Source: Podarcis vaucheri (taxonomy: Eukaryota). From it: a DNA stretch of 64,000 nt. The stretch lies in the NCBI GenBank assembly GCA_965113315.1, contig OZ220369.1; one strand, 5' to 3'. Positions 3,581-64,000 of the stretch are shown piece by piece; position 1 is the first letter of the stretch; every line of letters starts with the position of its first letter. Under the pieces are notes generated by a model. It saw only the letters and a list, made by a program, of their open reading frames with translations. It was not told the origin of the DNA and ran no database searches. The position numbers were made by a program, and so were the translations under genes.

Positions 3581-3790
3581 TCTACAGAAGCAGTTCATAT
3601 AATCAGACAGAGTACCTGGCTGCACCTTGAGGCAAAAGACGACTCCACACTCATCCAATCACATTACATACAGCCAATCACATTACTGCTGAGTCATTCT
3701 GACCCAGCACTTCCTCAAAATCTTCTCTACCTGCAGCCTGATCCTGTGTGCATAGCTCTAGCTGAGAGGTTAAAAGAAACAGATTTGCAA
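3471..3790 (-). mobile_element. Possible solo-LTR fragment
   Basis: Starts TGTCACG exactly where a MITE arm is cut; minus-strand AATAAA at ~3537; repeated CCAATCAC motifs 3655-3680; far boundary and TSD not found. Confidence 0.35.
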
Positions 3791-5236
3791 GCTCCAGTAT
3801 GTTTTACAACCTATTCTTTCTTTCTTTATTTGTTTGCTTAACTCATTAATTGCCTTATACAAAGATGGATCTAGACACATCAAAGAAGCGTTTCAGTTTA
3901 AAGCCTTGTAAATTTAAGCAGGGAAAACAGGTAGAGAAGAACGGGCCTCTATGTTGCCATCTGGTGGCACAATGTTATATCGCACATATAACATATATAA
4001 ATCGCTTTTTCTTTAGCAGTCTAGCTGCATCTCAACACTCAATTATGCATAAAATTTAACTGCAGCAATGGATCACATTCAGTGATGTGCACCTGTTTGT
4101 GCAGTGGAGATCCATTTATGCAATGCAACCTCTGACTAATCTCCTCCACCAGCCTCCCATATGCATCCAAAATCTGCTTCAGAGGTCCCAAAACATGCAG
4201 AGCTGATGATGGGGTGCACATGGGCTGCAAGGGGGGGGGAATTGCATTGCATCTGTAGACACTTCCTTGTGCTACGTTGGATCTTATGACATCAGTCCAC
4301 TACAAAGGATCATCCAAATAATTCTCAATACATTAATCCACAACCTCCCAGTCACCATAAAATCAGCCAACTCACAAATCCTGCCCAACAGCAGTGATGA
4401 AATCACTGCGATCAAATGCCTATTGGATTCTGTGATTGTAAGTGATAGTTGTTTGCCTATTCCTAAGTAAATCTTAGAAACTAAATAACTTACATGGCAA
4501 AAAAGTATTTTGCGATACCTTTAGTTTCTTCCTGATAAATATGCATTCAGAACTGGTCAGAGGAAACTTTTAGAACTCCATTGCCCTTCCACAATGCCCG
4601 CAAGGCATGCTGTCAGTAATGTGATTTTACTGTACCATCTCCTTGGAATGCTGTACATTTTTATACTTTTTAAGGTGAACACTTACTGTCACTTTAAAGA
4701 TTACATATCGTGGAAGTGTTCTTATTCAGTGATTTCCCATGCACCCTGAGCATTTGCATTGCTCGAGGTGGTTTCTACTTTGAAGAACTTTAAAATCACA
4801 GAGGAGCTGTCCCTTACAAAGATTTTTACATCACTGGGTAACTGCTCTCCCTTTGAGAGTTTTCATGTTATTGTGCAATTCCCCCTTTGAAGATTTACAT
4901 AGTGATGAAGGAGAGCCTTTGAAGATGGAGTCATTGCCAGGGTAGAAATAACCTTTTTTAAATATAAAAAAGAGGATAAACCCCCAGAAAAGTTTCCATC
5001 ATTAGACTACCCATCCATGAAAAGATCCTCTAATAATTAATTATTCAAAACAAAAATATCCAACAGCACTTTTTTGTTCTAGAGAAGCGTATGTAGAATG
5101 ATGCAAATCCAATGATGTGGATCAATCCAACCACAACTTGGTGGCCCAGATTAAACCACCAGGATGTACTGAATACTTCCAGTTCATAAGAGCACCAACT
5201 CATGGGGACCGAGCTGTTTTGGCCCCCACAATAGCT

Positions 5237-10574: not shown

Positions 10575-10760
10575 CATAGGAAGCTACTTTATATTGAGTC
10601 AGGCTGTTGGTCCATCTAGCTCAGTAGTGACTGACTGGGAGCAACTTTCCAGAGTTTCAGACAGGGGATAATTCCAGCCCTATCTAGAGATGTTGGGTCT
10701 GGAATCTAGGACCTTCTATATGCATGCAGATGTTCTACCACTGAGCTACGACTTTTCCCC
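10575..10760 (-). mobile_element. tRNA(Ala/Cys-like)-derived SINE, decayed
   Basis: Minus-strand TAGCTCAGTGGTAGA A-box head; 3' body shared with copies at 19470, 35489 and 54413. Confidence 0.7.
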
Positions 10761-15921: not shown

Positions 15922-16086
15922 CATACCGCCCTTCATCTGAGAATCACAGGGCAGTTTACAATATAAGAACACAAAAATACATAACACAGTAACTTACAAA
16001 ATCAATATGCACCCATTTAAAAAGGCAATAGATTGTTTAATTAGCCAAAGGCCTGGGAGAAGAGAAATGTTTTTGTCTGACGCCTA
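15875..16086 (-). mobile_element. L2-type LINE 3' tail, cut by the Penelope insertion
   Basis: (TTA)n tract, TACCGCCCTTCATC..CAGGGCAG stem-loop end, A-rich UTR. Confidence 0.65.
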
Positions 16087-17812
16087 TATATATTATCCCC
16101 AGAGAAAAATCTTCCCCAGAGAAAAATCTTCCAGATGCCCCAAACTCTACGGTCTCCCCAAGATACACAAAGAAGGAACACCACTCAGACCAATAGTCAG
16201 CTCCATAGGCTCACCTCTACAAAATCTCGCTAAATTTCTCGCTAAGCAACTTCAGCCCTATGCAGAATCCATCGCTTCACACGTTACTAACTCCTTCCAG
16301 TTCATAGAAACAATAAAGAAGCAATACCTACATCCCGATGACCTACTTGTGAGCTTCGATGTTGTATCTCTCTTCACTCAAGTGCCCATTAATGAAGCCT
16401 TGACAGCCATTCAAAACAAATACAACCCCCCCAAATACATCCTGGACCTGACCAACCACTGCCTAACCAACACGTACTTCATCCACAATGGACAAAGATA
16501 CAAACAGATAGAAGGAGCACCTATGGGATCACCCCTCTCACCGGTCATCGCAAATTTGTACATGGAACACTTTGAAACCAATGCTTTAGACAAGTCAGAA
16601 CACAAACCCAAACTTTGGCTCAGATATGTTGACGACACCTTTGTAATTTGGCCACACGGGAAAGAAAAACTAGATAGCTTCCTCACACATCTCAACAGCC
16701 TACACCCCAAAATACAATTCACTATGGAAATAGAAGACAACAACCAACTCCCCTTTCTTGACGTCCTAATCTACAAAAAACCTGATGGCTCCCTAGGACA
16801 CACTATCTACCAGAAAAAAACACACACCAACCGCTACTTACATGCACAATCACACCACCACCCTGCACAAATAAACTCCGTAGCCAAGACTCTCATCTCC
16901 AGAACCAAACGCCTGGCTGACAAAGACCACTTGACAACTGAGTTACAGAATCTCTCAAATGTGTTAATCGCCAATGGATACCAGAAAAACAGGGTTACGA
17001 AGCTAATCCAAAAAGAAACACCCCCCAAAAACCAAGACACAGAAGAAAACAATGGCATGGCCCTCCTTCCTTATATCAAGGGCACTACAGACAAAATCAG
17101 CAAAATCCTCCATAAACACAATATCAAAACAGCCTTCTGCACCAACCAAAAAATAGCCAATATCCTCAGAAACCCAAAAGACAAAATCCAGCTGGAAAAC
17201 CAAGGGGTCTATGAAATACCCTGCAAAGTCTGCCCAGCCACGTACATTGGACAAACAAACAGACGAATAAATACACGTATCGCAGAACACAAGAATGCCG
17301 TCAAAAAAGAAGAAAAAACTTCCTCTCTTTTCCAACACATGAAAGAAACAGGACACGAAATTAATTTTGCAGATTCCAAATTGCTCTTTAACATGGAACA
17401 TCACCACAAGAGAATAATCATGGAAGCCATCGAGATAGAGAAACACCCTCACAACATGAACAAGCGTGACGACACGTCCCGCCTGCCAGACATCTGGAAA
17501 TTAGCCCTCCCCACAAAAACCGACACCAGAACCAGAGGCACACAGAACGCCGTCACCAATCAACCACACCAGACCCAAACCCAGACCCTCTCCACAGACA
17601 TATTACAGACTCCATCCAGTAGCCAAACTATAGTGGCACCTCCGGATGCTGCACCCCCCTGCAATCCCTACACAGATCTGGCTGGCACAAGGCACAAAAC
17701 CACAGCTCGCCCCTATACACGAAGCCAAGCCAGAGCACAACTAAATGCAGCACAGCCATCTTCTCAGAAAAACTCTTCACAAGCTCAAGAGGTCAAGACA
17801 CAAAAGCTTTAG
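16007..17812 (+). CDS. Penelope-like element polyprotein (reverse transcriptase + GIY-YIG endonuclease), 5'-truncated; real homology starts ~16115 (PREKSS...), first ~36 codons are flanking DNA
   Basis: PLE RT motifs LYGLPKIHK, PLRPIVS, LVSFDVVSLFTQVP, GAPMGSPLSP, WLRYVDDTF, LPFLDV; His motif HAQSHHHP; GIY-YIG domain GVYEIPCKVCPATYIGQT..R..EH with EAIEI and MNKRD; no internal stops or frameshifts. Confidence 0.95.
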   Translation: MHPFKKAIDCLISQRPGRREMFLSDAYIYYPQRKIFPREKSSRCPKLYGLPKIHKEGTPLRPIVSSIGSPLQNLAKFLAKQLQPYAESIASHVTNSFQFIETIKKQYLHPDDLLVSFDVVSLFTQVPINEALTAIQNKYNPPKYILDLTNHCLTNTYFIHNGQRYKQIEGAPMGSPLSPVIANLYMEHFETNALDKSEHKPKLWLRYVDDTFVIWPHGKEKLDSFLTHLNSLHPKIQFTMEIEDNNQLPFLDVLIYKKPDGSLGHTIYQKKTHTNRYLHAQSHHHPAQINSVAKTLISRTKRLADKDHLTTELQNLSNVLIANGYQKNRVTKLIQKETPPKNQDTEENNGMALLPYIKGTTDKISKILHKHNIKTAFCTNQKIANILRNPKDKIQLENQGVYEIPCKVCPATYIGQTNRRINTRIAEHKNAVKKEEKTSSLFQHMKETGHEINFADSKLLFNMEHHHKRIIMEAIEIEKHPHNMNKRDDTSRLPDIWKLALPTKTDTRTRGTQNAVTNQPHQTQTQTLSTDILQTPSSSQTIVAPPDAAPPCNPYTDLAGTRHKTTARPYTRSQARAQLNAAQPSSQKNSSQAQEVKTQKL

Positions 17813-32631: not shown

Positions 32632-34244
32632 CTGTATTGCTTACTTACAATAGCCTAAAGCAAACAACAACAACAGAACTCAGTACAAAAAAAAACCTGT
32701 TATAATTATAAAATCAGAATTCAGTTAAATGCTGGCTGGAATTTTTTAAAAAAAATATACTCCAGTATGCACTGGAAGTTCAACAGGGAGAAAACCTGTT
32801 TTGCCTCAACTGGCAGGGAGTTCCATAAAATCAGGTCCACAATATGGAATGTGCAGTGCCTGGTTAATACAAGACTTGCATCTGAGCCATGGGGGACCAC
32901 AAACAGTGACTCATGTGAAGACCTCAATGACTGAGCGGGGATAGAATAATGTACTTTTAAGGGAAATTGCCCCAAACGGCCAACCTGAGTTTCCATACAT
33001 TTTTAGCAATTTCCATCCAGATACTACTTTGACTACACTGTTCCATATATGTCTGGAAAATTTTGACATTCGGCAACCCTAGGATAGTGGAACCTTTGGC
33101 CTTCTGTATGTTGTTGAACTACAAGGTCCGCCAGCCATAGAATGAATGGCCAATGGCCAGGGAAATTGGGAGTTGTAGTTCAGCAACATCTGAAGGGCCA
33201 AAGGTCCCCCACACTCGTAATAATGGACATAATCTATAAAGGCGTTAGGGAATGTCAAGATGATACATGCAATATTTAGTACTTGGTGGAATCACAGGAT
33301 GTGTGGACTCTACATGGCTCTGATGTGAAAACCCACTTTGGAAAAGTAGTTCCAGGCAGCAGCATTAAGCTAGATCATAAACCACAAATCAGCAACATTT
33401 GCGCACACAAGAATTTTACCTATTTTTCACCAGCCAAACAGCAAAGCTGCCTCCAAAGCTGCTGCAATATACCAAATTCCATGTGAATGCCCCACTGAAG
33501 CAAGACTATTATTAAGAATCTGTTTTACATTAGTAGCAGGATCTCCAACCCACTTACATTTTTCTCCTGCTGAGCTGACAACCTCCATCAACACCGGCCT
33601 GTCTGCACATCTAACATCAGGAAACACCTAACATAGCTATAATAAATTCAAGCCTTTAGACTCCATCCTGCCCAGCGGCATATAAATCAGATTCAAACTT
33701 TTGAACTGTGTTTATTTTTTCACCAGGGGGAAAAAACCCCTCCTCTTATTTGTTCAGATATGCAATGACTGACCAAATTGAAATACTAGAAAAATACAGC
33801 CTGCTTTGAAGAGAGTCCAGCATAAGGCACTGAAACATATCTGGCTATTACTAAGAAAATGGATACACATCTCAGGAATTTGTACCAATGATTTTAAATT
33901 AAATATGATTTGCTTTCTAAGCATGGGATCTAAGAGTTTATTGTTCCATTCTTGGAGGAACACAGGAGAAATATTTTTTGCCACAGTGCAGCAAAAATGG
34001 GAGGCATCTAGCAAGAGTTGTTCCATAGTGTCTGCCCCTAAATAACAGAATGACAAAATGTTTAAATGAAAGCTGCAGACGAGAGGAGGACATCTGTGCC
34101 TCAGTAAAAATAGTACAACAGACCAGTCATCAAAAATATCTGGAGGGTTCCCATCAACCACAGCTGAGGCTGATGCAGGTTGTAGTCCAAAGTGTCTGGA
34201 GGGCACCAGATTGGTAAATGGGATCATCTTAATAGATGGTCCTG

Positions 34245-34959
34245 GTTGCGGGCAGGCTCTCAACCTGGTTCCCCCCACCCAGGGCTATTGCCCAATCATG
34301 TCAAAGGGTGATAGTGGGGGGAAGTATAAAAGCAACAGCGCGACATGTGCATGCCTCCTGCTTCGCGCTGCTGAAGACCCGCCCACCCTCCCTTTAATTT
34401 AGATCCTTTGGCCTTGCTTTGGACTTTGGTTGGTAGCCTGGCTTGAGTCAGGGACCAGGTAAATTTGTCCATTTGGCAAACTGGCATGGGCCACTTGGTT
34501 TTTGCCTACCTCTTAGCAATCGTCACAGCTTTGTAAGGTTTGGCGGTTAGGCATTGGCTTATGGTGAATGCGGGAGGGGAGGTCGACCATCACCTGCCCC
34601 TCCAGTTTCAAGGGTATTCCGTTAAAGGAAGCCGGGGCCTGGTTTCTGTCTGAAGTCCACTTGAAGGGTGAGGGTCATGCCAGGCCTCCGGGAACACCGG
34701 GGGAGATGCAGGTGGGTTCCCCCGAAGCAATTTCCCTTTGGGTGGTTTACCCTTACAGACTCCCTGCAAAGGGGACAGGAGTCAGATATAGTCTTGCCAA
34801 TGCCTAAGCCAATACCGCTCTCATTCCTGTAATCAATAAAGCTGTGGCCAAATTGTTGCCCTTAAACAAAACCTTAAAAAACCTTAAACAAAATATCCGT
34901 GTCCATGTGAATTTATTTATCCTAACGGGGGGGTCGGCTTGAGGGTCTTGCCATGCAAA
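34245..34959 (+). mobile_element. Structured LTR-like dispersed repeat, copy 1 (possibly a solo terminal repeat of a DIRS/Ngaro tyrosine-recombinase retroelement)
   Basis: Colinear conserved blocks with 37256-38057; TATAAAA ~34325; AATAAAGCTGTGGCC ~34835; self-complementary ends; no TSD. Confidence 0.6.
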
Positions 34960-35177
34960 GGCTGCAACAGACATTTTCCAACATGCACACGGTTTGAGGC
35001 TTTTTAATAGGGAAGTTTATGTTTATATCTGTCCGGTGATCAGTTGACTGAAAGCTAGACAAATTTATATCCAATTAAGGTCTACTCACAGTAAACCCAT
35101 TGACAGTAATGAGCATGACTAACTTGGCCCCATTAATTCCTGAACAAGAATAGCATTGGCTGCCATCCAAAAGCTCA

Positions 35178-35298
35178 GCCAAGACTCTTAATTTCAGGGC
35201 AGTGGGTTCGAGACCCACGTTAGGCAAAAGGTTCCTGCATTGCAAGATCCACATGGTCCCTTCGAACACTACAGTTCTCTGATTCTCTGATTCTCTGA
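35178..35298 (+). mobile_element. tRNA-Lys-derived short SINE with CR1-type tail
   Basis: AGACTCTTAAT..CAGGG..GTGGGTTCGAGACCCACGTT (tRNA-Lys 3' half) then GGTCCCTTC..AC..TAC and (ATTCTCTG)n tail. Confidence 0.75.
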
Positions 35299-35359
35299 CC
35301 CTCCCACACATCGGTTGTAGGAACAGATGGAGCTCAAATGGGAAATGGACAAAACTGAC

Positions 35360-35425
35360 TACAAGTGGAGAATGTTCAATGCATAAAACAATACAAGTGG
35401 AGAATGTTCAATGCATAAAACAATA
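35360..35425. repeat. Perfect 32-bp tandem duplication
   Basis: tacaagtggagaatgttcaatgcataaaacaa x2. Confidence 0.95.
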
Positions 35426-35488
35426 TAGCAACAGGCCATTGCAGTCTTCAAATGCCACCTATGGGGAGTAAAACAGATGTGCCTTAAA

Positions 35489-35673
35489 GGGGAAGGGCCA
35501 TAGCTCAGTGGTAGAGCACATGTTTTGCATGCAAAATGGCCCAGGTTCAATTCCTGGCATCTCCAGGAAGGGTTAGGAGAAATTCATGAACCCCTGGAAT
35601 GCCTCTGACACTTACTGTTGACTATACTAGGTAAGATGGACCAATGGTCTGACTCAGTAGAAAGCAGATTCCT
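35489..35673 (+). mobile_element. tRNA(Ala/Cys-like)-derived SINE
   Basis: A box TAGCTCAGTGG, B box GGTTCAATTCC, then GATGGACCAATGGTCTGACTCAGT body shared with other copies. Confidence 0.8.
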
Positions 35674-37255
35674 ACAATACTATCAAACACTTTGAATAAC
35701 TAATTTGGAAACTGTACAATGAGAGGAGGGGGAATTTAATGTGGTGTCACACAAGTTGCGATTTAAACATAGAACATAAGATAACTGCGGCTGCTGTGAT
35801 TCTGAACTTTTTTTTAAAAAAAAAAGCTATATGAAAAGGCATATTCAAAGATTTTCCTGCCGTTCTGAATCACTGTGTCATGTACTCTCCCGAGGATTCT
35901 GCACCGTACAAGGTGGAACCTCTTTAAAAATGGCGTCAGCGTTATAGCATGAGACGCCAGGTAATTTGTAATTGCAAGTGACTTAGAAAAGTCACAGGGG
36001 ACTTTATCCAATTCAGTAATTATTCCTTTCTACTGAGCCCTGGTCTTTCACTGTTTCAGATCAGTAGGGGTTGGCCTTGTAGATAATACTTTGCGGTAAC
36101 TTAATTATATCAGATTCAATTCCTGATAAAGGCGCTGTCTTATGCTTTCAAACAGGGACATTGCAAATACACAAACAATTATAAAAAAGTTACATTATTA
36201 GATTGAGAAGTTATTAGGTTCCCACCACCTCTATTTATGCAGGAATCCTATAACTGTGTATTTTAAGTAAGCCCCTCTGAAATCAGCGGGACTTTGCTGC
36301 ATAGGTATGTATAGAATTGCACGGTTGATCAGAAATGTGGTGAATTAGAGACTGCTCGTGAAAAGATTTGCATGTGCTCTTTTGAAATCAAGTAGGGCTG
36401 TTGGTTTTAATTCCTCTCATTAAGCATTTGTTTTCATTTCATTTCAGCCAGTCATCCTTATCAGCTGAGTCCATTACCATTTGATACCCAAACCAGAGGA
36501 GTTTTTGTTTTATTTTTAAATCTGCATTCTGTCAAGATCCAGTTGCTTCTAATTTATTGCAATGAACCCTGGGCAACAAGATCCTCAAGGTTTCCTCTCC
36601 TAATGCACACCACCTGGTTTCTGTTAGGCTTAAGGTAGACAAGGACATTAGGTCATGTCACTCTGCACGTTGTAAAAACAACCATTTTAGAAGGTGGCAG
36701 ACTTGCATGTGAAGTGAAACAAAAGCTTCCACTGTGCCTTGACACCCTAGAAGTTCCACAGGGTTTCAATTAAATACAGATTGAATAAATAGGTATTCCT
36801 GTGACTTGGGTTTTAACTTCTCTCTTTCTTCATCATGCCATGAAAAATTCCAGGACTGGAGGAGGGGGATAAACTCTTTTTTTTTTTTAAGAGAAAGAAT
36901 GAGAAACCTTTCTGTATGGACCCAGGAGACAAGAAGCCAAAAATATAGCTGGTTATGTCAAATCAGCATAAAATACGTATGCCAGAGAATTTGAAAGATC
37001 AGTAGCAAGCCTAAAAAATATATATAAAACTATTACGGATGGACAGGTGTCACTCTGTTTCCTATTTATGTCCATTTTGCATAGCTTGTTCATTCCATCC
37101 TCTTTCTGCATTAATCTGCTTTTTTTTTTAAAAAAAAAAAAAGGAATTTCATATGAAAGTTTGTATTTATAATTATTTTATCTCAAGGGACACATTTCCA
37201 GGCCTTCTTTACCCTGAAAAACACATAGTGTGTTCTCCAATAAATGAGAGCACGT

Positions 37256-38057
37256 GTTGCGGTGTGGGCCACTGGGCCAGCCCTCTTGTTGCCAGGCAGG
37301 TTAATAGTTGTTGCCTGGCATTGTGATTGGATAACCGGGTTGCTGGGGGAAATTGTATGTTGCAAATTGGGTGGGTGGGACCATAGTCTTTAAATATTGG
37401 TGCACTCTGGTTTCTCTTTCTCTTTGCAGAGTGCATCGGATCACCCGCCCGCCCTCTTTTCCGGTTGACCTTGCTTTGCCTGTCATGGGGTCGTCTGCCT
37501 TGGCACAGGGGCCTAGTAGGAATTTTGCCATTTGGTGATTGGCTGGGCCATTTGGTTTTTGCCTACTACTCAGCAATTTGTCACAACTTGTAAGCTTGCG
37601 GTTAGGCATTGGTTATAATATGCTGGTGGTGGAGGGGTCAGGATACGCTGTGCCTGCCCCTCCTATTGCGCTGAAGGGAATTCCGTTAAAGGAATCCTGG
37701 GGCTTGCCATGATTTCATCCTATCCCTGTCATGGGATCAGGGCCGTCCAATCCCTGTCATGGGACCAGGGCCAGCAAGCCTTCGGGGAGCTGCTGGGGTG
37801 AGCGGCGTGGGTCTGACGCTTAGCTCAAATGACCCCCAAGTTTGACTTTCCCTTCTACTGGTTACTGATCAGACCTCGGGATGTCAGTTCTGTCCCGGGC
37901 GGGGGGACAGATAGTCATAACCAATGTCTAAACAACCACTCACTGATTTTGTATTTTAATAAAGTTGTGGCCAAAATAGTGCCCAAAAACCAAAACTAAA
38001 ATTACGTGTTATGTGTGAAGTTATTTGAGGGGTGGCCTGGGGACCTACACACGCAAC
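37256..38057 (+). mobile_element. Structured LTR-like dispersed repeat, copy 2
   Basis: GTTGCG...CGCAAC ends, AATAAAGTTGTGGCC ~37958, blocks shared with copy 1; no TSD. Confidence 0.6.
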
Positions 38058-41000
38058 TTGTAATGCATTTCTCTACATAATTTGAGCCAAGAACTTTATC
38101 ACAAATTTCAGACAAAAGCAAAAATTTGAAAAGATGAGTATGTCCTGACCCACTCACTGCTCCAGGAAGTTCTGTTCAGACTATTTCTCATTAGAAATTA
38201 AAACTGTATAAAAGCTTCAGCTGGTCCAAAATGATGTGTACAGACTGCTGACTGGGACCAGTTACAGAGAACACTTTACTCCTCTTTAAAAACAAACAAA
38301 CAAACAAACAAACTTCATTGTCTACTAGGCCACTTCCTAAATCCAGAGATTCCCTATGCAATCCATGTAGCTAGTGTTCCTGTTTGCGTTTTCAAAGGAC
38401 GGGGACTCTCTGGGTTTAAGAAGATAAGTAGTGAAGGAGAACACCACATAAACGAGGAGGAATTAAAGGAGTCACAAGGGGTACACAACCCCCATTAAGC
38501 TTAGGTATGGATGAGCCTTTAGTCAAGAATATTAGTGAGACACTTGGGAAGTGTCAGTTCATACTGGCATTTGCAAGCACGTCTAGTTTTAAGAGTTACT
38601 GCTTTAAAGGCTTATAAAGACCTTGTCTCAAAGTACATCCATTTTTAAATTACTGAAAGAAAACAAAATGTGCATCATTGTTATTTTTGCTATTTATCAT
38701 TTGCCAGCTATGTGATGCTGACAATCCCTTTTGAATTTTAAGGATTAAGAATGCCAGAGGGCATTACATTAACATTATGTCTGGGTTCCCTCTCCGCCTA
38801 CTCTTGTCAAAACAAAAAAACTGAGAAATCTGTCACAGAGAGATAGAAAAATTGAAGAAATCTAATTAGTGCTATATGTTTGGAAACTATTGCCAACAAA
38901 ATCTGTTGGTTTAAGTCATATTATGGAACAAAGACGTTTATATTGTTTAATTATGATTAGATCCTGAGTTGGGAATATTCCAGTCTGCTCCTCATATTAC
39001 CAAAAACATAATTTCCACAATCTTGAGAAACATCTCTTGTTCTTGCCATGATAGACGTGAATATTATAATTCTATTATTTTTAATGTATTTTCAGATGTG
39101 TGACTGCTACAAAGGCTCAAATAAAGTATTATCCCCTGGACAATAGACGATATGCTGCAAGAGCCAATGGAAGAAAATGAATTTCATTAGAATAATCACA
39201 ATATAAAGGACTCAGCTTCATGCCCCGTGACAGTCATTTTCTCTCAATGGGGAATCCTCTTCGTATTGACTTTTCTGATAAGTAAAGTCTGCTGCAACTT
39301 TTCCACGTATTGCAAAAGGATTGCAGGGAGGGTTTCTGTGAGGGGTGAATCCATTGCTGCAGGCTACACAGCCTGCAAATTTCACCCACTTCTTTCATGA
39401 AGAAAAAAAAAGTTATAGCCATTAAAAAGAAATCCCAGTAGGTGAGGGAAACAAAGGAAATTCAAATTGCTAAACTGAATTGTGCAGCCTCTGAATTGGT
39501 CAAAGCTGAACTGGACTGTTTTCCAAAGCACTTAATCAGGTGGGGCAAAGCAAATCCTGTAGTCAGTGCACACTCCTGCCACATACAATCTTCTATGTGA
39601 CAATAGAAGGTGGTGCTTCTTCCCCAGTCCCTATTCTGACTGCGCCAAAGAGATTATTGAACCTTCATTTGCCATAGGGCTAAAGCAGGATGGGGTATCA
39701 GATCCAAATAATAGTTTCTCTGTGCAATTTAGATTTGCACCTGAAATCCAGCAGGGAATAAACATAACCCCCTGTGTCCAGTAGGGCTGATTGATATATT
39801 GAGACATTGTCCAAAATCGGTTTGAAGTCCACATCATGGTAACGGGTTCATAATATTCAACATGGCGATATATCATGAATCACAATGTTTGTGTGTCCTA
39901 TGTAAAAGAAATAACGACGTGGGGAAAACCATGAAGCTGGTTGTCACTTCTCTCGTGATTGCTGCTGCTCCTGTTGCTCTGTACTGTAGAATAACAGTTG
40001 TAAGAATATGTTATAATGGAAAAATTACAGCAAACATTGTATTCTATCCCAGATAACTTTAGCAATTCTCCCCATTTAACCAAAATTCAGAAAGTAAATC
40101 TACTTGCCAGGTTGGATGGAGCTGCTATCTTCCTGACTTTTGGGTAGCTTTTGGTTACTGGACGGGGGGTGGGGTGGAGTAGATAGCGGGGAGGTTGGCA
40201 CAGTACAGACACACCAGTGATATTCATCTAATTTGAATTCCAGTGTGAATAACATCTTCCAGTCTACTATGAAGAACATAATTATTTTTCAAATTTCACT
40301 GATGTGTCAAAAATGCATATTTTAGAATTAAATATAAATGTTCATGCAGGTTTTTAAAATAAAAAAATGCAGCAGAAATAGGACAAAACAAATGCATAAG
40401 AACATGCATGAAATAGATGCAAGCTCAGGAAACAGACTGAGATGTTCCTGCTTAACTAGAGTAGGAAGACAAAATTAAAGCCCAGGATGAAGTAGGTTAC
40501 CATAAAGGAGATTAAGTGCCATATGCAAGTCTTCTCTGTTCATTTCGTTCGAGAGTTAGCATGTCTCTAAATGAAGCTTTCTAGATGTTTATGTTGGTTT
40601 TCAAACTGTTTATGAAACCCCAGCCTTGAAGGTTTACAGATGGAACAGTAAAACTTCGCAGTGGTGTTGGCCTTTCGTTTGCTTTTCTTCAACATCCACT
40701 TTCCCTCCCCCAGTTGCCTTTAAAACACCAATCTGGGCCAAGAATTGGGAAGCCATTTATTATTGTGCTTGCTGCCAAATAGTTTCAGCATGAAAATAAG
40801 CCCTGTCATGGCCAAAGATAATACCAGGCCTCCTCCAGGTACAACTGGCCACACTTATTAAAACAAAGCCAGGCTTTAGCTTGGAATCTGATGAAAAAGA
40901 ACACCAGGTGTCCGTTACTTAGTTTTATCGGGGTGGGGGATATGAATGCCCTAACAAATAATCTGTCCTCAGCATGGGGATCAAGTTCTTGCTTCATCCT

Positions 41001-54943: not shown

Positions 54944-56999
54944 TATAATTAATTACAAAACATTTTACTGGGTGGACATTGAGATGTATAATGTAGAGTA
55001 TTTTTGGTCAGAACTCCAGCAGAATGGAAACAGCGCTGCATGCATCAAACCAAGGGCAGAATATATACCAATATTTCCTTACATCTCTACACAGATTGCT
55101 ACTGCTTGAGGTGGGGGGTTTTCCATTCATATAATTTCATTTCATTTCATTAAATTTATATTCCACCCTTCCTCTCAAAGGAGTCTGGGTAGCCCAACAT
55201 AGCAGCCATCCCAAATAAATGGCATTTTGCTCATTTACCTCGCCATTTGCTTGGAATCACAGCTACTAGTTCCATACAGGTAGAATATCTATTCACAAAA
55301 GAATAATGGCAATTCTTTTTCACGAGACACTTTAAAACCCTCCTGCTGTGCCATCGATAAAGGCGTGAAAAGCTTCTCTATGGGGAGATATTGTAAAACA
55401 ACCCTTTATGTATGATTATAACGCAGATTAATGCTGTGCATTAATCCAGGTTCAGGCGCTTGCTGTTTGCGAGAGCACTCTGCGGTTTGCCAAACAACCA
55501 GTCATAAATGCTACTGCTCAATATTACTCCCAATGACATTTGAGCAATATCCTCCTCCTGCTTTCTTTCATAGCCCTTTAGGAATTTGTCCTGCTTCATT
55601 GTATAACGGCCTTGGAGAGCAGGAAATTAGAGGTGGGAATACAAAAAGAACAAAGTAATCCTGCTTGCGGTGTCAAATTAGAAGATACAGTGCAGTGAAA
55701 GAATGCCACGTCCTCCTCCCCCCTCCACCCCCTCCCAACTCAGACACTACAGTTGTTAATCCAGTACAGAAAGAATAGAAATCACTCTTAGGGGTTGGTG
55801 TGTTTACCAAACAGCTACTTTCAAAGCCCCTTTAGTAGGGACAAGCAATTCCCTGTTCTCCAAGAACAGCCTAATGCATAATGCATAAGGTTATGGGGAG
55901 GGGGGGAGTGTATTCACGAGGGTGGCTTGGCTTCCATCAAAAAGAGAACAGTGAGAAATTATGATAGAACAATTTTCATTTCTGCCACATTGTTTTTATA
56001 GTACATTCATGCCTGGGAATTGGAGGCTTTGGAGTCTGGTCTGCTGTAGCTGTTGTGGGGCCTGTCGCTATTTTCTCGCTGACAGTGACACTAAAAACAA
56101 CAGCACCCCAAAACAAAAACAAACAAAAACACACACGCCCGGAGATAGTTGTGGAATGCAAGTTGAATCCCTGCCTGTCCACTTTTGCTGTGTTACAAAA
56201 GAAAGAAAGAAACAGTTTAGGGAATGTTGTGGGGGGGGGGTGGAGCAAATACATTCTGCAGCTGGCATAGGATGGTGTCAACAGAATTGGAGCTTCATGG
56301 TCCCCTATTGAAGAACCTCACATTGTGTATGATGATGTGTGATGATGCGGCTGAGCAGTGGCAAAGGCAGGTAGAAAGCAAGGAAAGCTTTAGTAAACCT
56401 GCCAAGTAAATATTTCTAAAAGAATCCTTGGCCATCTCTTAATAATTTTCTGTGAACATATTGAGAATAAACAAATAAAAGGAAGTGCGGTCTTTTTTCC
56501 CATTTCCATTTCATATTTTTTTTACAAATTATCTCCCCTAGTGGCTTTCATCTGATCAAACATTGGAGTCTTCTTAACAGCTGGCTTCATTTTCTCCTTT
56601 ACCTGTAAGAGCAAAGGCATGGTAAAATCAGCAGCATATTGGAATTCCCTGGTACAATTAGCAAGCAAAAAGACTTTGTGTAATGTATAGGCTGTTTGTT
56701 TTTTATGGAAATTAGAGGGATAGATTGTACAAACAACATCAAGTGTCTCTTATCTTTGGGTAAGCCATTAGACCTGCAATCCTACGTGCACCTACTCAGG
56801 AGGAAGACCCATTTGGATGTAGCCGGGATGCTTCAGAGTAGAAATGCTTATGTAACCCACGCTGTTATTCTTATTATTAAGGGCAGGAGAATACACTGCA
56901 AAACCAATAGAAGGTCTATTCAGCTGACCTTTCATCCTCTTTTCCCCACACTACTGGAGTACTATACTGGAGTATAGTAGTGATGTATGTACTGGAGTA

Positions 57000-57431
57000 T
57001 AGTAGTGATGTATGGAAGTGAGAGCTGGACCATAAGGAAGGCTGATCGCCAAAGAATTGATGCTTTTGACGTATGGTCTGGAGGAGACTCTTGAGAGTCC
57101 CATGGACTGCAAGAAGATCAAACCTCTCCATTCTTAAGGAAATCAGCCCTGAGTGCTCACTGGAAGGACAGATCCTGAAGCTGAGGCTCCAATACTCTGG
57201 CCACCTCATGAGAAGAGAAGACTCCCTGGAAAAGACCCTGATGTTGGGAAAGATGGAGGGCACAAGGAGAAGGGGACAACAGAGGACGAGATGGTTGGAT
57301 AGTGTTCTCAAAGCTACCAGCATGAGTTTGACCAAACTGTGGGAGGCAGTGGAAGACAGCAGTGCCTGGTGTGCTCTGGTCCATGGGGTCACGAAGAGTC
57401 GGACACGACTAAACGACTAAACAACAACAAC
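57000..57431 (+). mobile_element. RTE-BovB LINE 3' fragment
   Basis: WRRLLRVPWTARRSNLSILKEISPECSLEGQILKLRLQYSGHLMRREDSLEKTLMLGK; (CAA)n tail; TSD actggagtac (56953-62, 57432-41). Confidence 0.95.
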
Positions 57432-63130: not shown

Positions 63131-63804
63131 TTTGTTGTTGTTGTTTAGTCGTGTCTGACTCTTTGTGACCCCATGGACCAGAGCATGCCAGGCACTATTG
63201 TCTTCCACTGCCTCCCACAGTTTGGTCATGCTGGTAGCTTCAAGCACACTATCCAACCATCTCGTCCTCTGTCATCCCCTTCTCCTTGTGCCCTCAGTCT
63301 TTCCCAACATCAGTGTCTTTTCCAGGGAGTCTTCTCTTCTCATGAGGTGGCCAAAGTATTGGAGCCTCAGCTTCATGATCTGTCCTTCCAGTGAGCACTC
63401 AGGGCTGATTTCCTCAAGAATGGATAGGTTTGATCTTCTTGCAGTCCATGGGACTCTCAAGAGTCTCTTCCAGCACCATAATTCAAAAGCATCAATTCTT
63501 TGGCGATCAGCCTTCTTTATGGTCCAGCTCTCACTTCCATACCTCACTATTGGGAAAACCATAGCTTTAACTACACGGGCCTTTGTTGGCAAGGTGATGT
63601 CTCTGCTTTTTAAGATGCTGTCTAGGTTTGTCATTGCTTTTCTCCCAAAAAGCAGGCGTCTTTTAATTTCGTGACTGCTGTCACCATCTGCAGTGATCAT
63701 GGAGCCCAAGAAAGTAAAATCTCTCACTGCCTCCATTTCTTCCCCTTCTATTTGCCAGGAGGTGATGGGACCAGTCGCCATAATCTTCGGTTTTTTGATG
63801 TTGA
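63131..63804 (-). mobile_element. RTE-BovB LINE 3' fragment
   Basis: ORF 63272-63781: FTFLGSMITADGDSSHEIKRRLLFGRKAMTNLDSILKSRDITLPTK...; (CAA)n tail. Confidence 0.95.
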
Positions 63805-64000
63805 TCTACAGGTTAGGCTTTCTCAAAATTCAGATGAGAAGAATGGGCATGGACACAACCTCAGAGGCAATTTAGCCAAAAAGCTCTTTTATATTATCTA
63901 TTAATATATCATTTTTTTCAGTGGGCCTACTATTATAGCACACACTGGGAGTACAATAAGGACCACAAAAGATCACAATATTTAAAATAAATTCCTAGAA

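Follow-up and report, generated by a model that had tools for sequence, protein, structure and literature searches.

A conserved hairpin at the repeat junction of Ngaro retroelements in Podarcis vaucheri, a candidate folded substrate of their tyrosine recombinase

What kind of element has arms that pair with each other and yet leaves no duplication of its target? Two elements (copies 1 and 2) between positions 34245 and 38057 of a 64,000-nucleotide (nt) stretch of the Podarcis vaucheri genome (assembly GCA_965113315.1, contig OZ220369.1) raise this question; we call the whole stretch the window, and coordinates are positions in it. A preliminary description of the sequence had seen a terminal panhandle, with wobble pairs and a bulged A, possibly of a DIRS/Ngaro-type or undescribed nonautonomous element. 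The two elements are almost certainly ordinary solo repeats of Ngaro, so that the class, a tyrosine recombinase (YR) retroelement, had been named correctly. What looked like a panhandle, however, forms the outer stem of a hairpin that is local to the junction of two repeats, B and A, and is split in the solo A-B remnants. This B|A junction fold is real and conserved. Judging from sequence comparison, we consider it probable that the hairpin serves as a folded single-strand substrate of the element's own YR, in an integron-like manner and with one strand exchange.

The class assignment comes from relatives elsewhere in the genome. A search with PF00589 gave at least 65 YR matches (103 of 277 candidates were scored), and 29 of 30 YR loci carried relatives of the window elements 3′ of the YR in permuted order, the right part (B) preceding the left part (A); L069 was weak. 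Ten of 20 larger YR regions had the layout A1...B1-A2-B2, two showed B1/B2 alone, five stopped at B1, and three were unclassified, one of which later showed A1...B1-A2-B2 further out. Self-BLAST found direct repeats in the relatives and no DIRS1-like inverted terminal repeats with an internal complementary region (ICR). The A repeat measures about 216 bp and the B repeat about 430 bp; the spacer that separates A2 from B2 is unique sequence and measures about 165 bp. Copy 2 is 69% identical over its full length to the A2-spacer-B2 unit of relative L093, and copy 1 is 67 to 72% identical in parts to full-length relatives. Long copies with open reading frames (ORFs) for reverse transcriptase (RT) and YR, of the kind the preliminary description had in mind, are present: L093 and L096 both have RVT_1 and Phage_integrase above the Pfam cutoff (2/2). 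The relatives' ORFs comprise a CCCH-gag (below the cutoff), RT, YR, and a weak GDSL/SGNH hydrolase-like match (Lipase_GDSL_2, E = 3.8e-4, below the cutoff, in one of two ORFs downstream of YR). Pfam gave no methyltransferase match among eight ORFs of the relatives and detected no RNase H in L093 or L096. Amphibian Ngaro elements are described as A1-ORFs-B1-A2-B2 with gag/RT/YR and a hydrolase ORF downstream of YR (PMC9210276), and scattered solo AB repeats are already known (PMC8547959). Because the layout and the RT and YR ORFs match this definition, we assign the relatives to Ngaro; the scattered solo AB repeats are a further common feature, and the unique A2/B2 spacer is a difference.

Both window elements belong to high-copy families, with 3716 and 5001 first-look candidates; the 40 scored in each are 91 to 96% and 83 to 89% identical, respectively. 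A 15-nt B-repeat motif occurs 9,321 times in the genome, compared with 2 occurrences of a control, and a B|A junction pattern matches 999 times, compared with 296 for its control. The exact tail-to-head junctions of the window's own two families gave no genome matches (0 each), and full-length copies of these families are therefore, as far as this search indicates, rare or lost. Copy-2-like contigs of two runs, X1 and X6, contain a tail-to-head joint, of which a sister family may be the source. No empty-site joint was found among the matches listed (contigs of runs X1, X3, X4, and X6, which run from the flank into the window elements).

The arm pairing of the window elements was as first described. 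In copy 2, positions 37256 to 37285 pair with 38027 to 38057 through three G.T pairs, three mismatches, and bulged A38051 (duplex, −51.4 kcal/mol), and the arms of copy 1 pair around bulged A34953 (−44.1 kcal/mol). The bulged A is fixed in 29/29 family-2 and 22/22 family-1 copies. Target-site duplications (TSDs) are indeed missing (flank match of at least 4 bp in 1/29 family-2 and 0/22 family-1 copies), and neither element holds an ORF of at least 150 amino acids. Wobble pairing stood in part: one outer T.G is kept in 29/29 and 20/22 copies, but some wobbles of the window copies, such as that at T37273, are private CpG decay. The claim that both arms are terminal had to be abandoned. By flank comparison, the 5′ end lies 28 to 30 nt further upstream, at the A after host A(A/T), and the last bases at the 3′ end are CGCAA; copy 1 spans 34218-34958 and copy 2 spans 37227-38056. 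Homology reaches 28 to 30 nt 5′ of GTTGCG in 30/30 family-2 loci, and the added 5′ piece of both elements forms a second hairpin (z = −3.5 and −4.3). We assigned C38057 to the host because the base 3′ of CGCAA varies among 29 family-2 copies (A 12, C 9, T 7, G 1). The circle junction CGCAAC|GTTGCG proposed earlier does not exist; the actual one reads CACGCAA|A-spacer-hairpin-GTTGCG. Copy 1 is 741 bp long (most members of its family, about 780 bp), and internal identity between the two copies is 71 to 72%. Their parts are as follows.

34218..34958, plus strand: copy 1, solo Ngaro A-spacer-B repeat (ends from family copies; homology to full-length relatives)
34216..34217, plus strand: copy 1, host target dinucleotide AA, 5′ of the crossover
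34218..34245, plus strand: copy 1, 6-nt spacer, inner hairpin, and partner spacer with final G; first inner pair T.G
34246..34276, plus strand: copy 1, outer-stem arm, A side (TTGCGG...)
34218..34379, plus strand: copy 1, repeat A, 3′ limit approximate (homology to L093/L110)
34540..34958, plus strand: copy 1, repeat B, 5′ limit approximate (homology); AATAAA at 34835-34840 (read from the sequence)
34927..34958, plus strand: copy 1, outer-stem arm, B side; bulged A34953; AA end is the crossover
37227..38056, plus strand: copy 2, solo Ngaro A-spacer-B repeat, 830 bp (family copies; homology to L093)
37225..37226, plus strand: copy 2, host target dinucleotide AT, the minor target variant
37227..37256, plus strand: copy 2, 6-nt spacer, inner hairpin, and partner spacer with final G; first inner pair T.G
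37257..37285, plus strand: copy 2, outer-stem arm, A side
37227..37443, plus strand: copy 2, repeat A (homology); TATA-like motif near 37389 (by eye only)
37598..38056, plus strand: copy 2, repeat B (homology); AATAAA at 37958-37963 (read from the sequence)
38027..38056, plus strand: copy 2, outer-stem arm, B side; bulged A38051; AA end is the crossover

In full-length relatives the B arm adjoins the start of A, so both arms form the outer stem of one long imperfect hairpin. It opens with an outer stem in which the A at −6 is bulged; AA follows, then a spacer of 6 nt with its first base or first two bases mispaired, an inner stem starting from T.G, and a loop; the base after AA at the crossover is A, T, or G. 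We studied the fold in 34 junctions (19 representatives at <90% identity). Of 36 candidate junctions, two that were not B|A and one shifted by 8 nt were dropped; in a separate set of 233 motif units, 137 could not be parsed. The invariant core, outer pairs O1 to O6, was fixed by the search pattern in 24 of the 34 junctions, the other 10 coming from YR matches alone. Arms and irregularities were analyzed in 31 families, from which six solos with miscalled or decayed ends were excluded; the starts of singleton solos were placed with the help of inner pairs, but without use of the T.G or of spacer positions 1 and 2.

The plus strand was the more stable in 19/19 junctions with both RNA and DNA parameters (mean z for plus versus minus, −6.3 versus −4.0 with RNA and −4.5 versus −3.3 with DNA parameters). 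On a MAFFT alignment, 94.4% of cells were paired and 10 of 18 pairs showed two-sided change, a level reached in 0/500 shuffles (a control that ignores relatedness); slid controls were 36 to 55% paired. Parsimony on a tree of interior sequence, arms excluded, assigned 24 of 55 events at 13 positions to Watson-Crick to Watson-Crick double changes. The T.G at the first inner pair is unchanged in 31/31 families, the first spacer position is non-Watson-Crick in 31/31, and the bulged A is present in 29/31. Distal arms bind their cognate partners at −15.0 kcal/mol, compared with −9.8 kcal/mol for swapped ones (31 families; permutation P ≤ 1e-5). Selection on the arms at the level of structure, which the preliminary description had suggested together with a covariation check, is borne out by this covarying fold. 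One clade of families (L096, L109, L132, L172, and L179 to L181) has a second GC-rich hairpin 3′ of the A arm. We found no published description of the junction fold or of a single crossover point, although earlier Ngaro reviews, figures, and supplements could hold one; the accessible text of PMC9210276, PMC8547959, PMC13465315, PMC6681497, PMC3783388, PMC4157794, and PMC2685390 does not mention a hairpin.

Insertion junctions were also compared. To collect left ends we left spacer and flank open in the pattern; of 310 matches the first 100 were counted, 40 of them internal junctions and 60 genomic. For right ends AA was left open, and the first 100 of 456 B ends include 57 genomic right ends (both hand counts). 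The family spacer was kept at 60/60 left ends, three with one substitution, and a lone spacer stood at the right flank in 0/57. All 100 listed B ends finished in AA, though 10 of 60 targets were not AA (P ~ 0.007), and B lay upstream in 29/29 junctions that could be cross-checked. The target had A 38 and G 20 at −4; position −3 was a base other than A in 59, position −2 was A in 56, and position −1 was A in 52, T in 5, and G in 3 (n = 60); the right flank at +1 was A 21, C 21, T 12, and G 3 (n = 57; chi-square P = 0.001). The target is a short A(A/T), with one uniform crossover point 3′ of AA. Six of 82 elements had flanks with a match to a paralogous repeat that lacks the insertion; in the closest such repeat, or a near one, the two flanks adjoin, with neither duplication nor loss. 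Because mixed ends are expected from a two-strand exchange over a nonmatching spacer, the uniform ends argue indirectly that insertion probably proceeds by a single strand exchange. Homogeneous junctions were likewise the argument for single cleavage at the attG sites of integrons (10.1101/2022.09.11.507474). T is enriched at target position −8 (43/76; flanks of L001 to L060 and singleton solos), and the recognized half-site may exceed 6 bp.

How would such an insertion work? Through reverse transcription, a circular intermediate would acquire a copy of the internal junction, B1|A2. The plus strand of the circle would fold, as single-stranded DNA or as a cruciform, into outer stem, AA | 6-nt spacer, and inner stem-loop; both routes are known for attC (PMC8946536). 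YR would then cut after AA and exchange this single strand with its target, a genomic A(A/T)|H; the resulting junction would be resolved by replication, as it is for attC, where one strand is favored for recombination and resolution by replication follows a single strand exchange (PMC5027507). The T.G at the symmetric cut position may, speculatively, block a second cleavage. Thousands of dispersed insertions without TSDs are hard to obtain from a YR that needs two matching sites, and a folded one-strand donor with a near-minimal target would suffice. The junction site is defined to the base and spans about 90 nt.

The analogy with attC, raised at the outset, proved right as a lead. Shared with attC and IntI are an imperfect hairpin, a cut after AA on the 5′ arm followed by spacer, second stem, and variable loop, a G.T bias to one strand (to which composition may contribute here), and structure kept while sequence drifts. 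As at attG, the target is short and degenerate (GWT, i.e., AW|C on the cut strand) and the junctions are uniform. In contrast, the AAC triplet cut at A|C is not found, the base after AA being A or T (also G) and not C; the spacer is only partly unpaired, as a bubble of 1 to 2 nt plus the bulged A (it is largely mismatched in six distant elements, described below); and the extra base lies in the outer stem on the cut arm. Another precedent is the CTX phage, whose folded single-stranded genome is a substrate of XerC through one pair of strand exchanges; it differs from Ngaro in using a host recombinase and a fixed chromosomal target.

The recombinase and its distant relatives extend the comparison. 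The catalytic residues R, K, H, R, W, and Y are invariant in an alignment of 29 YR proteins, and the structure model has a predicted local distance difference test score of 87. The closest named relatives are from lacertid lizards (52 to 61% identity). This Ngaro YR is also closely related to many lizard and amphibian proteins that carry the annotation "integrase/recombinase xerD homolog" and that probably represent transposon ORFs. No YR relatives were found in the viral_contigs collection. A search with the YR alignment retrieved 79 metagenome loci (29 to 43% identity), nine of them with repeats able to mark the junction, and six distant elements with 29 to 34% YR identity show a similar fold. 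Five of the nine (L311, L313, L323, L332, and L345) have an outer stem ending in TTAA, a largely mismatched spacer of 6 to 7 nt, and an inner stem; their partner arm reads TTAA-N6-TTAA, with G facing the first spacer base. In L320 the junction was predicted by a scan and confirmed by the B2 end. AA|N6|TT is the usual core geometry of YRs, and four half-site copies around a noncomplementary spacer are required in a folded strand and not in a duplex. A stricter TTAA scan, with a pattern chosen after the data had been seen, gave eight matches in 63 loci, compared with 0 upstream and 1.65 per shuffle. In L313, positions 3781-3876 and 10616-10711 form a flanking direct duplication of 96 bp (97% alike), unlike the TSD-free norm. 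We give an even chance to a wider reading, in which Ngaro elements of reptiles as well as of distant eukaryotes, and perhaps all of the DIRS order, would use a Cre-like YR that recognizes a folded strand where tail and head meet and exchanges one strand with A(A/T). If so, structure-specific single-strand site-specific recombination would be native to animal genomes, as a eukaryotic counterpart of attC with a compact insertion enzyme that leaves no duplication.

Several observations weigh against the hairpin being a folded recombination substrate. The main difficulty is polarity: the first cDNA strand is minus, but the fold and the AA| geometry point to plus, and second-strand synthesis or a cruciform must be assumed. 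The bulged A sits on the cut arm, within the outer stem. The cognate arm ranked first in just nine of 31 rows; G.T pairs outnumber A.C pairs (75 versus 27), of which the G-rich B arm may be the cause; and the outer pairs, largely pattern-fixed as described above, are invariant in sequence. Spacer positions 3 to 6 are mostly paired in this genome, unlike the unpaired spacer of attC, and some GC-rich junctions fold no better than shuffles (z = −0.9 for L260 and −0.95 for L320). An A at target position −6 is avoided in young families (9/60; G excluded by the pattern) and not in older ones (20/76); the idea that the target avoids this A owing to extrusion of the bulged A holds only in young families and was dropped. 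Biased repair could also make junctions uniform, and so could a cut in the minus strand directed by 2 to 3 bp of homology. The closest solved relative of the YR, by sequence and by fold, is Cre, IntI ranking 46th; because the model is closest to Cre and not to the IntI family, the likeness to integrons would be one of mechanism, not of membership. Among the distant loci, four of nine repeat-defined candidates lack the fold (L314 is rearranged; L283, L289, and L321 have their repeats at contig ends), the six positives all come from one assembly and three unconfirmed candidates from two others, and a scan with a loose motif had no power to discriminate (54 matches on the plus strand, 42 on the minus strand, 25 in shuffled sequence, and 17 upstream). 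The bulged A and T.G are not kept there, and bulges vary.

The main rival, unlikely in our view, is that the hairpin acts in RNA and YR integrates a double-stranded circle; the B1|A2 fold would allow read-through of the first polyadenylation signal or would guide RT priming or template jumps. The transcribed plus strand does fold better, with G.U pairs, and B1|A2 is probably the sole arm copy within the transcript, given the TATA-like motif in A and AATAAA in B. The stem extends over a GU-rich stretch 3′ of AATAAA in several families but not in others. For DIRS-1 of Dictyostelium a 3′ mRNA hairpin has been proposed as the RT primer (PMC7192593). What an RNA role leaves unexplained are the mismatch fixed at the crossover, the 6-nt spacers on both arms, the four distant TTAA half-sites, and the uniform junctions. 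It may coexist with folded-strand integration.

Alternatively, and this we think quite improbable, the hairpin aligns and seals the ends of a linear minus-strand cDNA, with either a double-stranded circle or a minus-strand cut with 2 to 3 bp of homology to the target, (C/T)AA, to follow. DIRS-1 offers a parallel: this YR retroelement contains an internal copy of its circle junction, its cDNA is single-stranded and mostly linear, and the junction has been called self-complementary, although DIRS-1 has inverted long terminal repeats (LTRs) and an ICR where Ngaro has split direct repeats; the authors keep the double-stranded circle as the YR substrate (PMC7192593). The target also resembles the B end (R-B-A-A), and the minus strand folds too, at the mean z values given above. 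However, the target base beside the cut is less strict than its neighbor (A in 52/60 at −1 versus 56/60 at −2), the preference for T over C at −3 and A over G at −4 fits a protein-read site better than homology, and no mixed junctions were seen.

An origin as nonautonomous Helentron/Helitron2-like DNA elements is very remote. Helentron/Helitron2 ends run TT, sub-terminal inverted repeat, hairpin, TT, without TSD; read on the reverse strand, solos look the same, and their end anatomy alone would fit. The A1-B1-A2-B2 context refutes this: the relatives are split repeats of RT/YR elements, no Rep/helicase partner shares the ends, and the genome has just one marginal, interrupted Helitron match (E = 9.7e-4). 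That the elements are ordinary solo LTRs of endogenous retroviruses or Gypsy, or decayed terminal inverted repeats in which CpG decay produced the wobbles, is scarcely conceivable, since, for all their promoter-like and polyadenylation motifs and a few wobbles that are private CpG changes, they lack TG...CA ends and 4- to 6-bp TSDs, and T.G pairs and bulge fixed across whole families refute the decay reading.

How did the solos arise? Families at 5 to 15% divergence appear almost all solo and young ones mostly full length, which favors an origin by post-insertion recombination between A1 and A2, as far as these copies indicate. L177, L252, and L253 (full-length elements and one double solo) contain tandem A-spacer-B arrays; the repeats therefore recombine. 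Direct integration of minicircles is less certain. The form A-ORFs-B, without the A2-B2 tail, occurs in L099, L100, L101, L102, and L111 (5/20 regions); these would be either products of recombination between B1 and B2 or smaller circles that integrated.

An Rfam scan of 34000-38300 returned just a tRNA-like short interspersed element (SINE) and one chance match and no ribozyme; a retrozyme or a Penelope pseudo-LTR is therefore unsupported as the identity of the elements. The SINE head, tRNA derived, lies between copies 1 and 2 (35494-35565, plus strand; Rfam tRNA, 36.6 bits). Elsewhere in the window, 15941-17812 (plus strand) is a 623-amino-acid open frame with RT and GIY-YIG-like motifs by eye, a putative Penelope-like element. 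Two inverted fragments, 56916-57417 and 63140-63805, which we take to be RTE/BovB-like, are about 95% alike and lie 5.9 kb apart.

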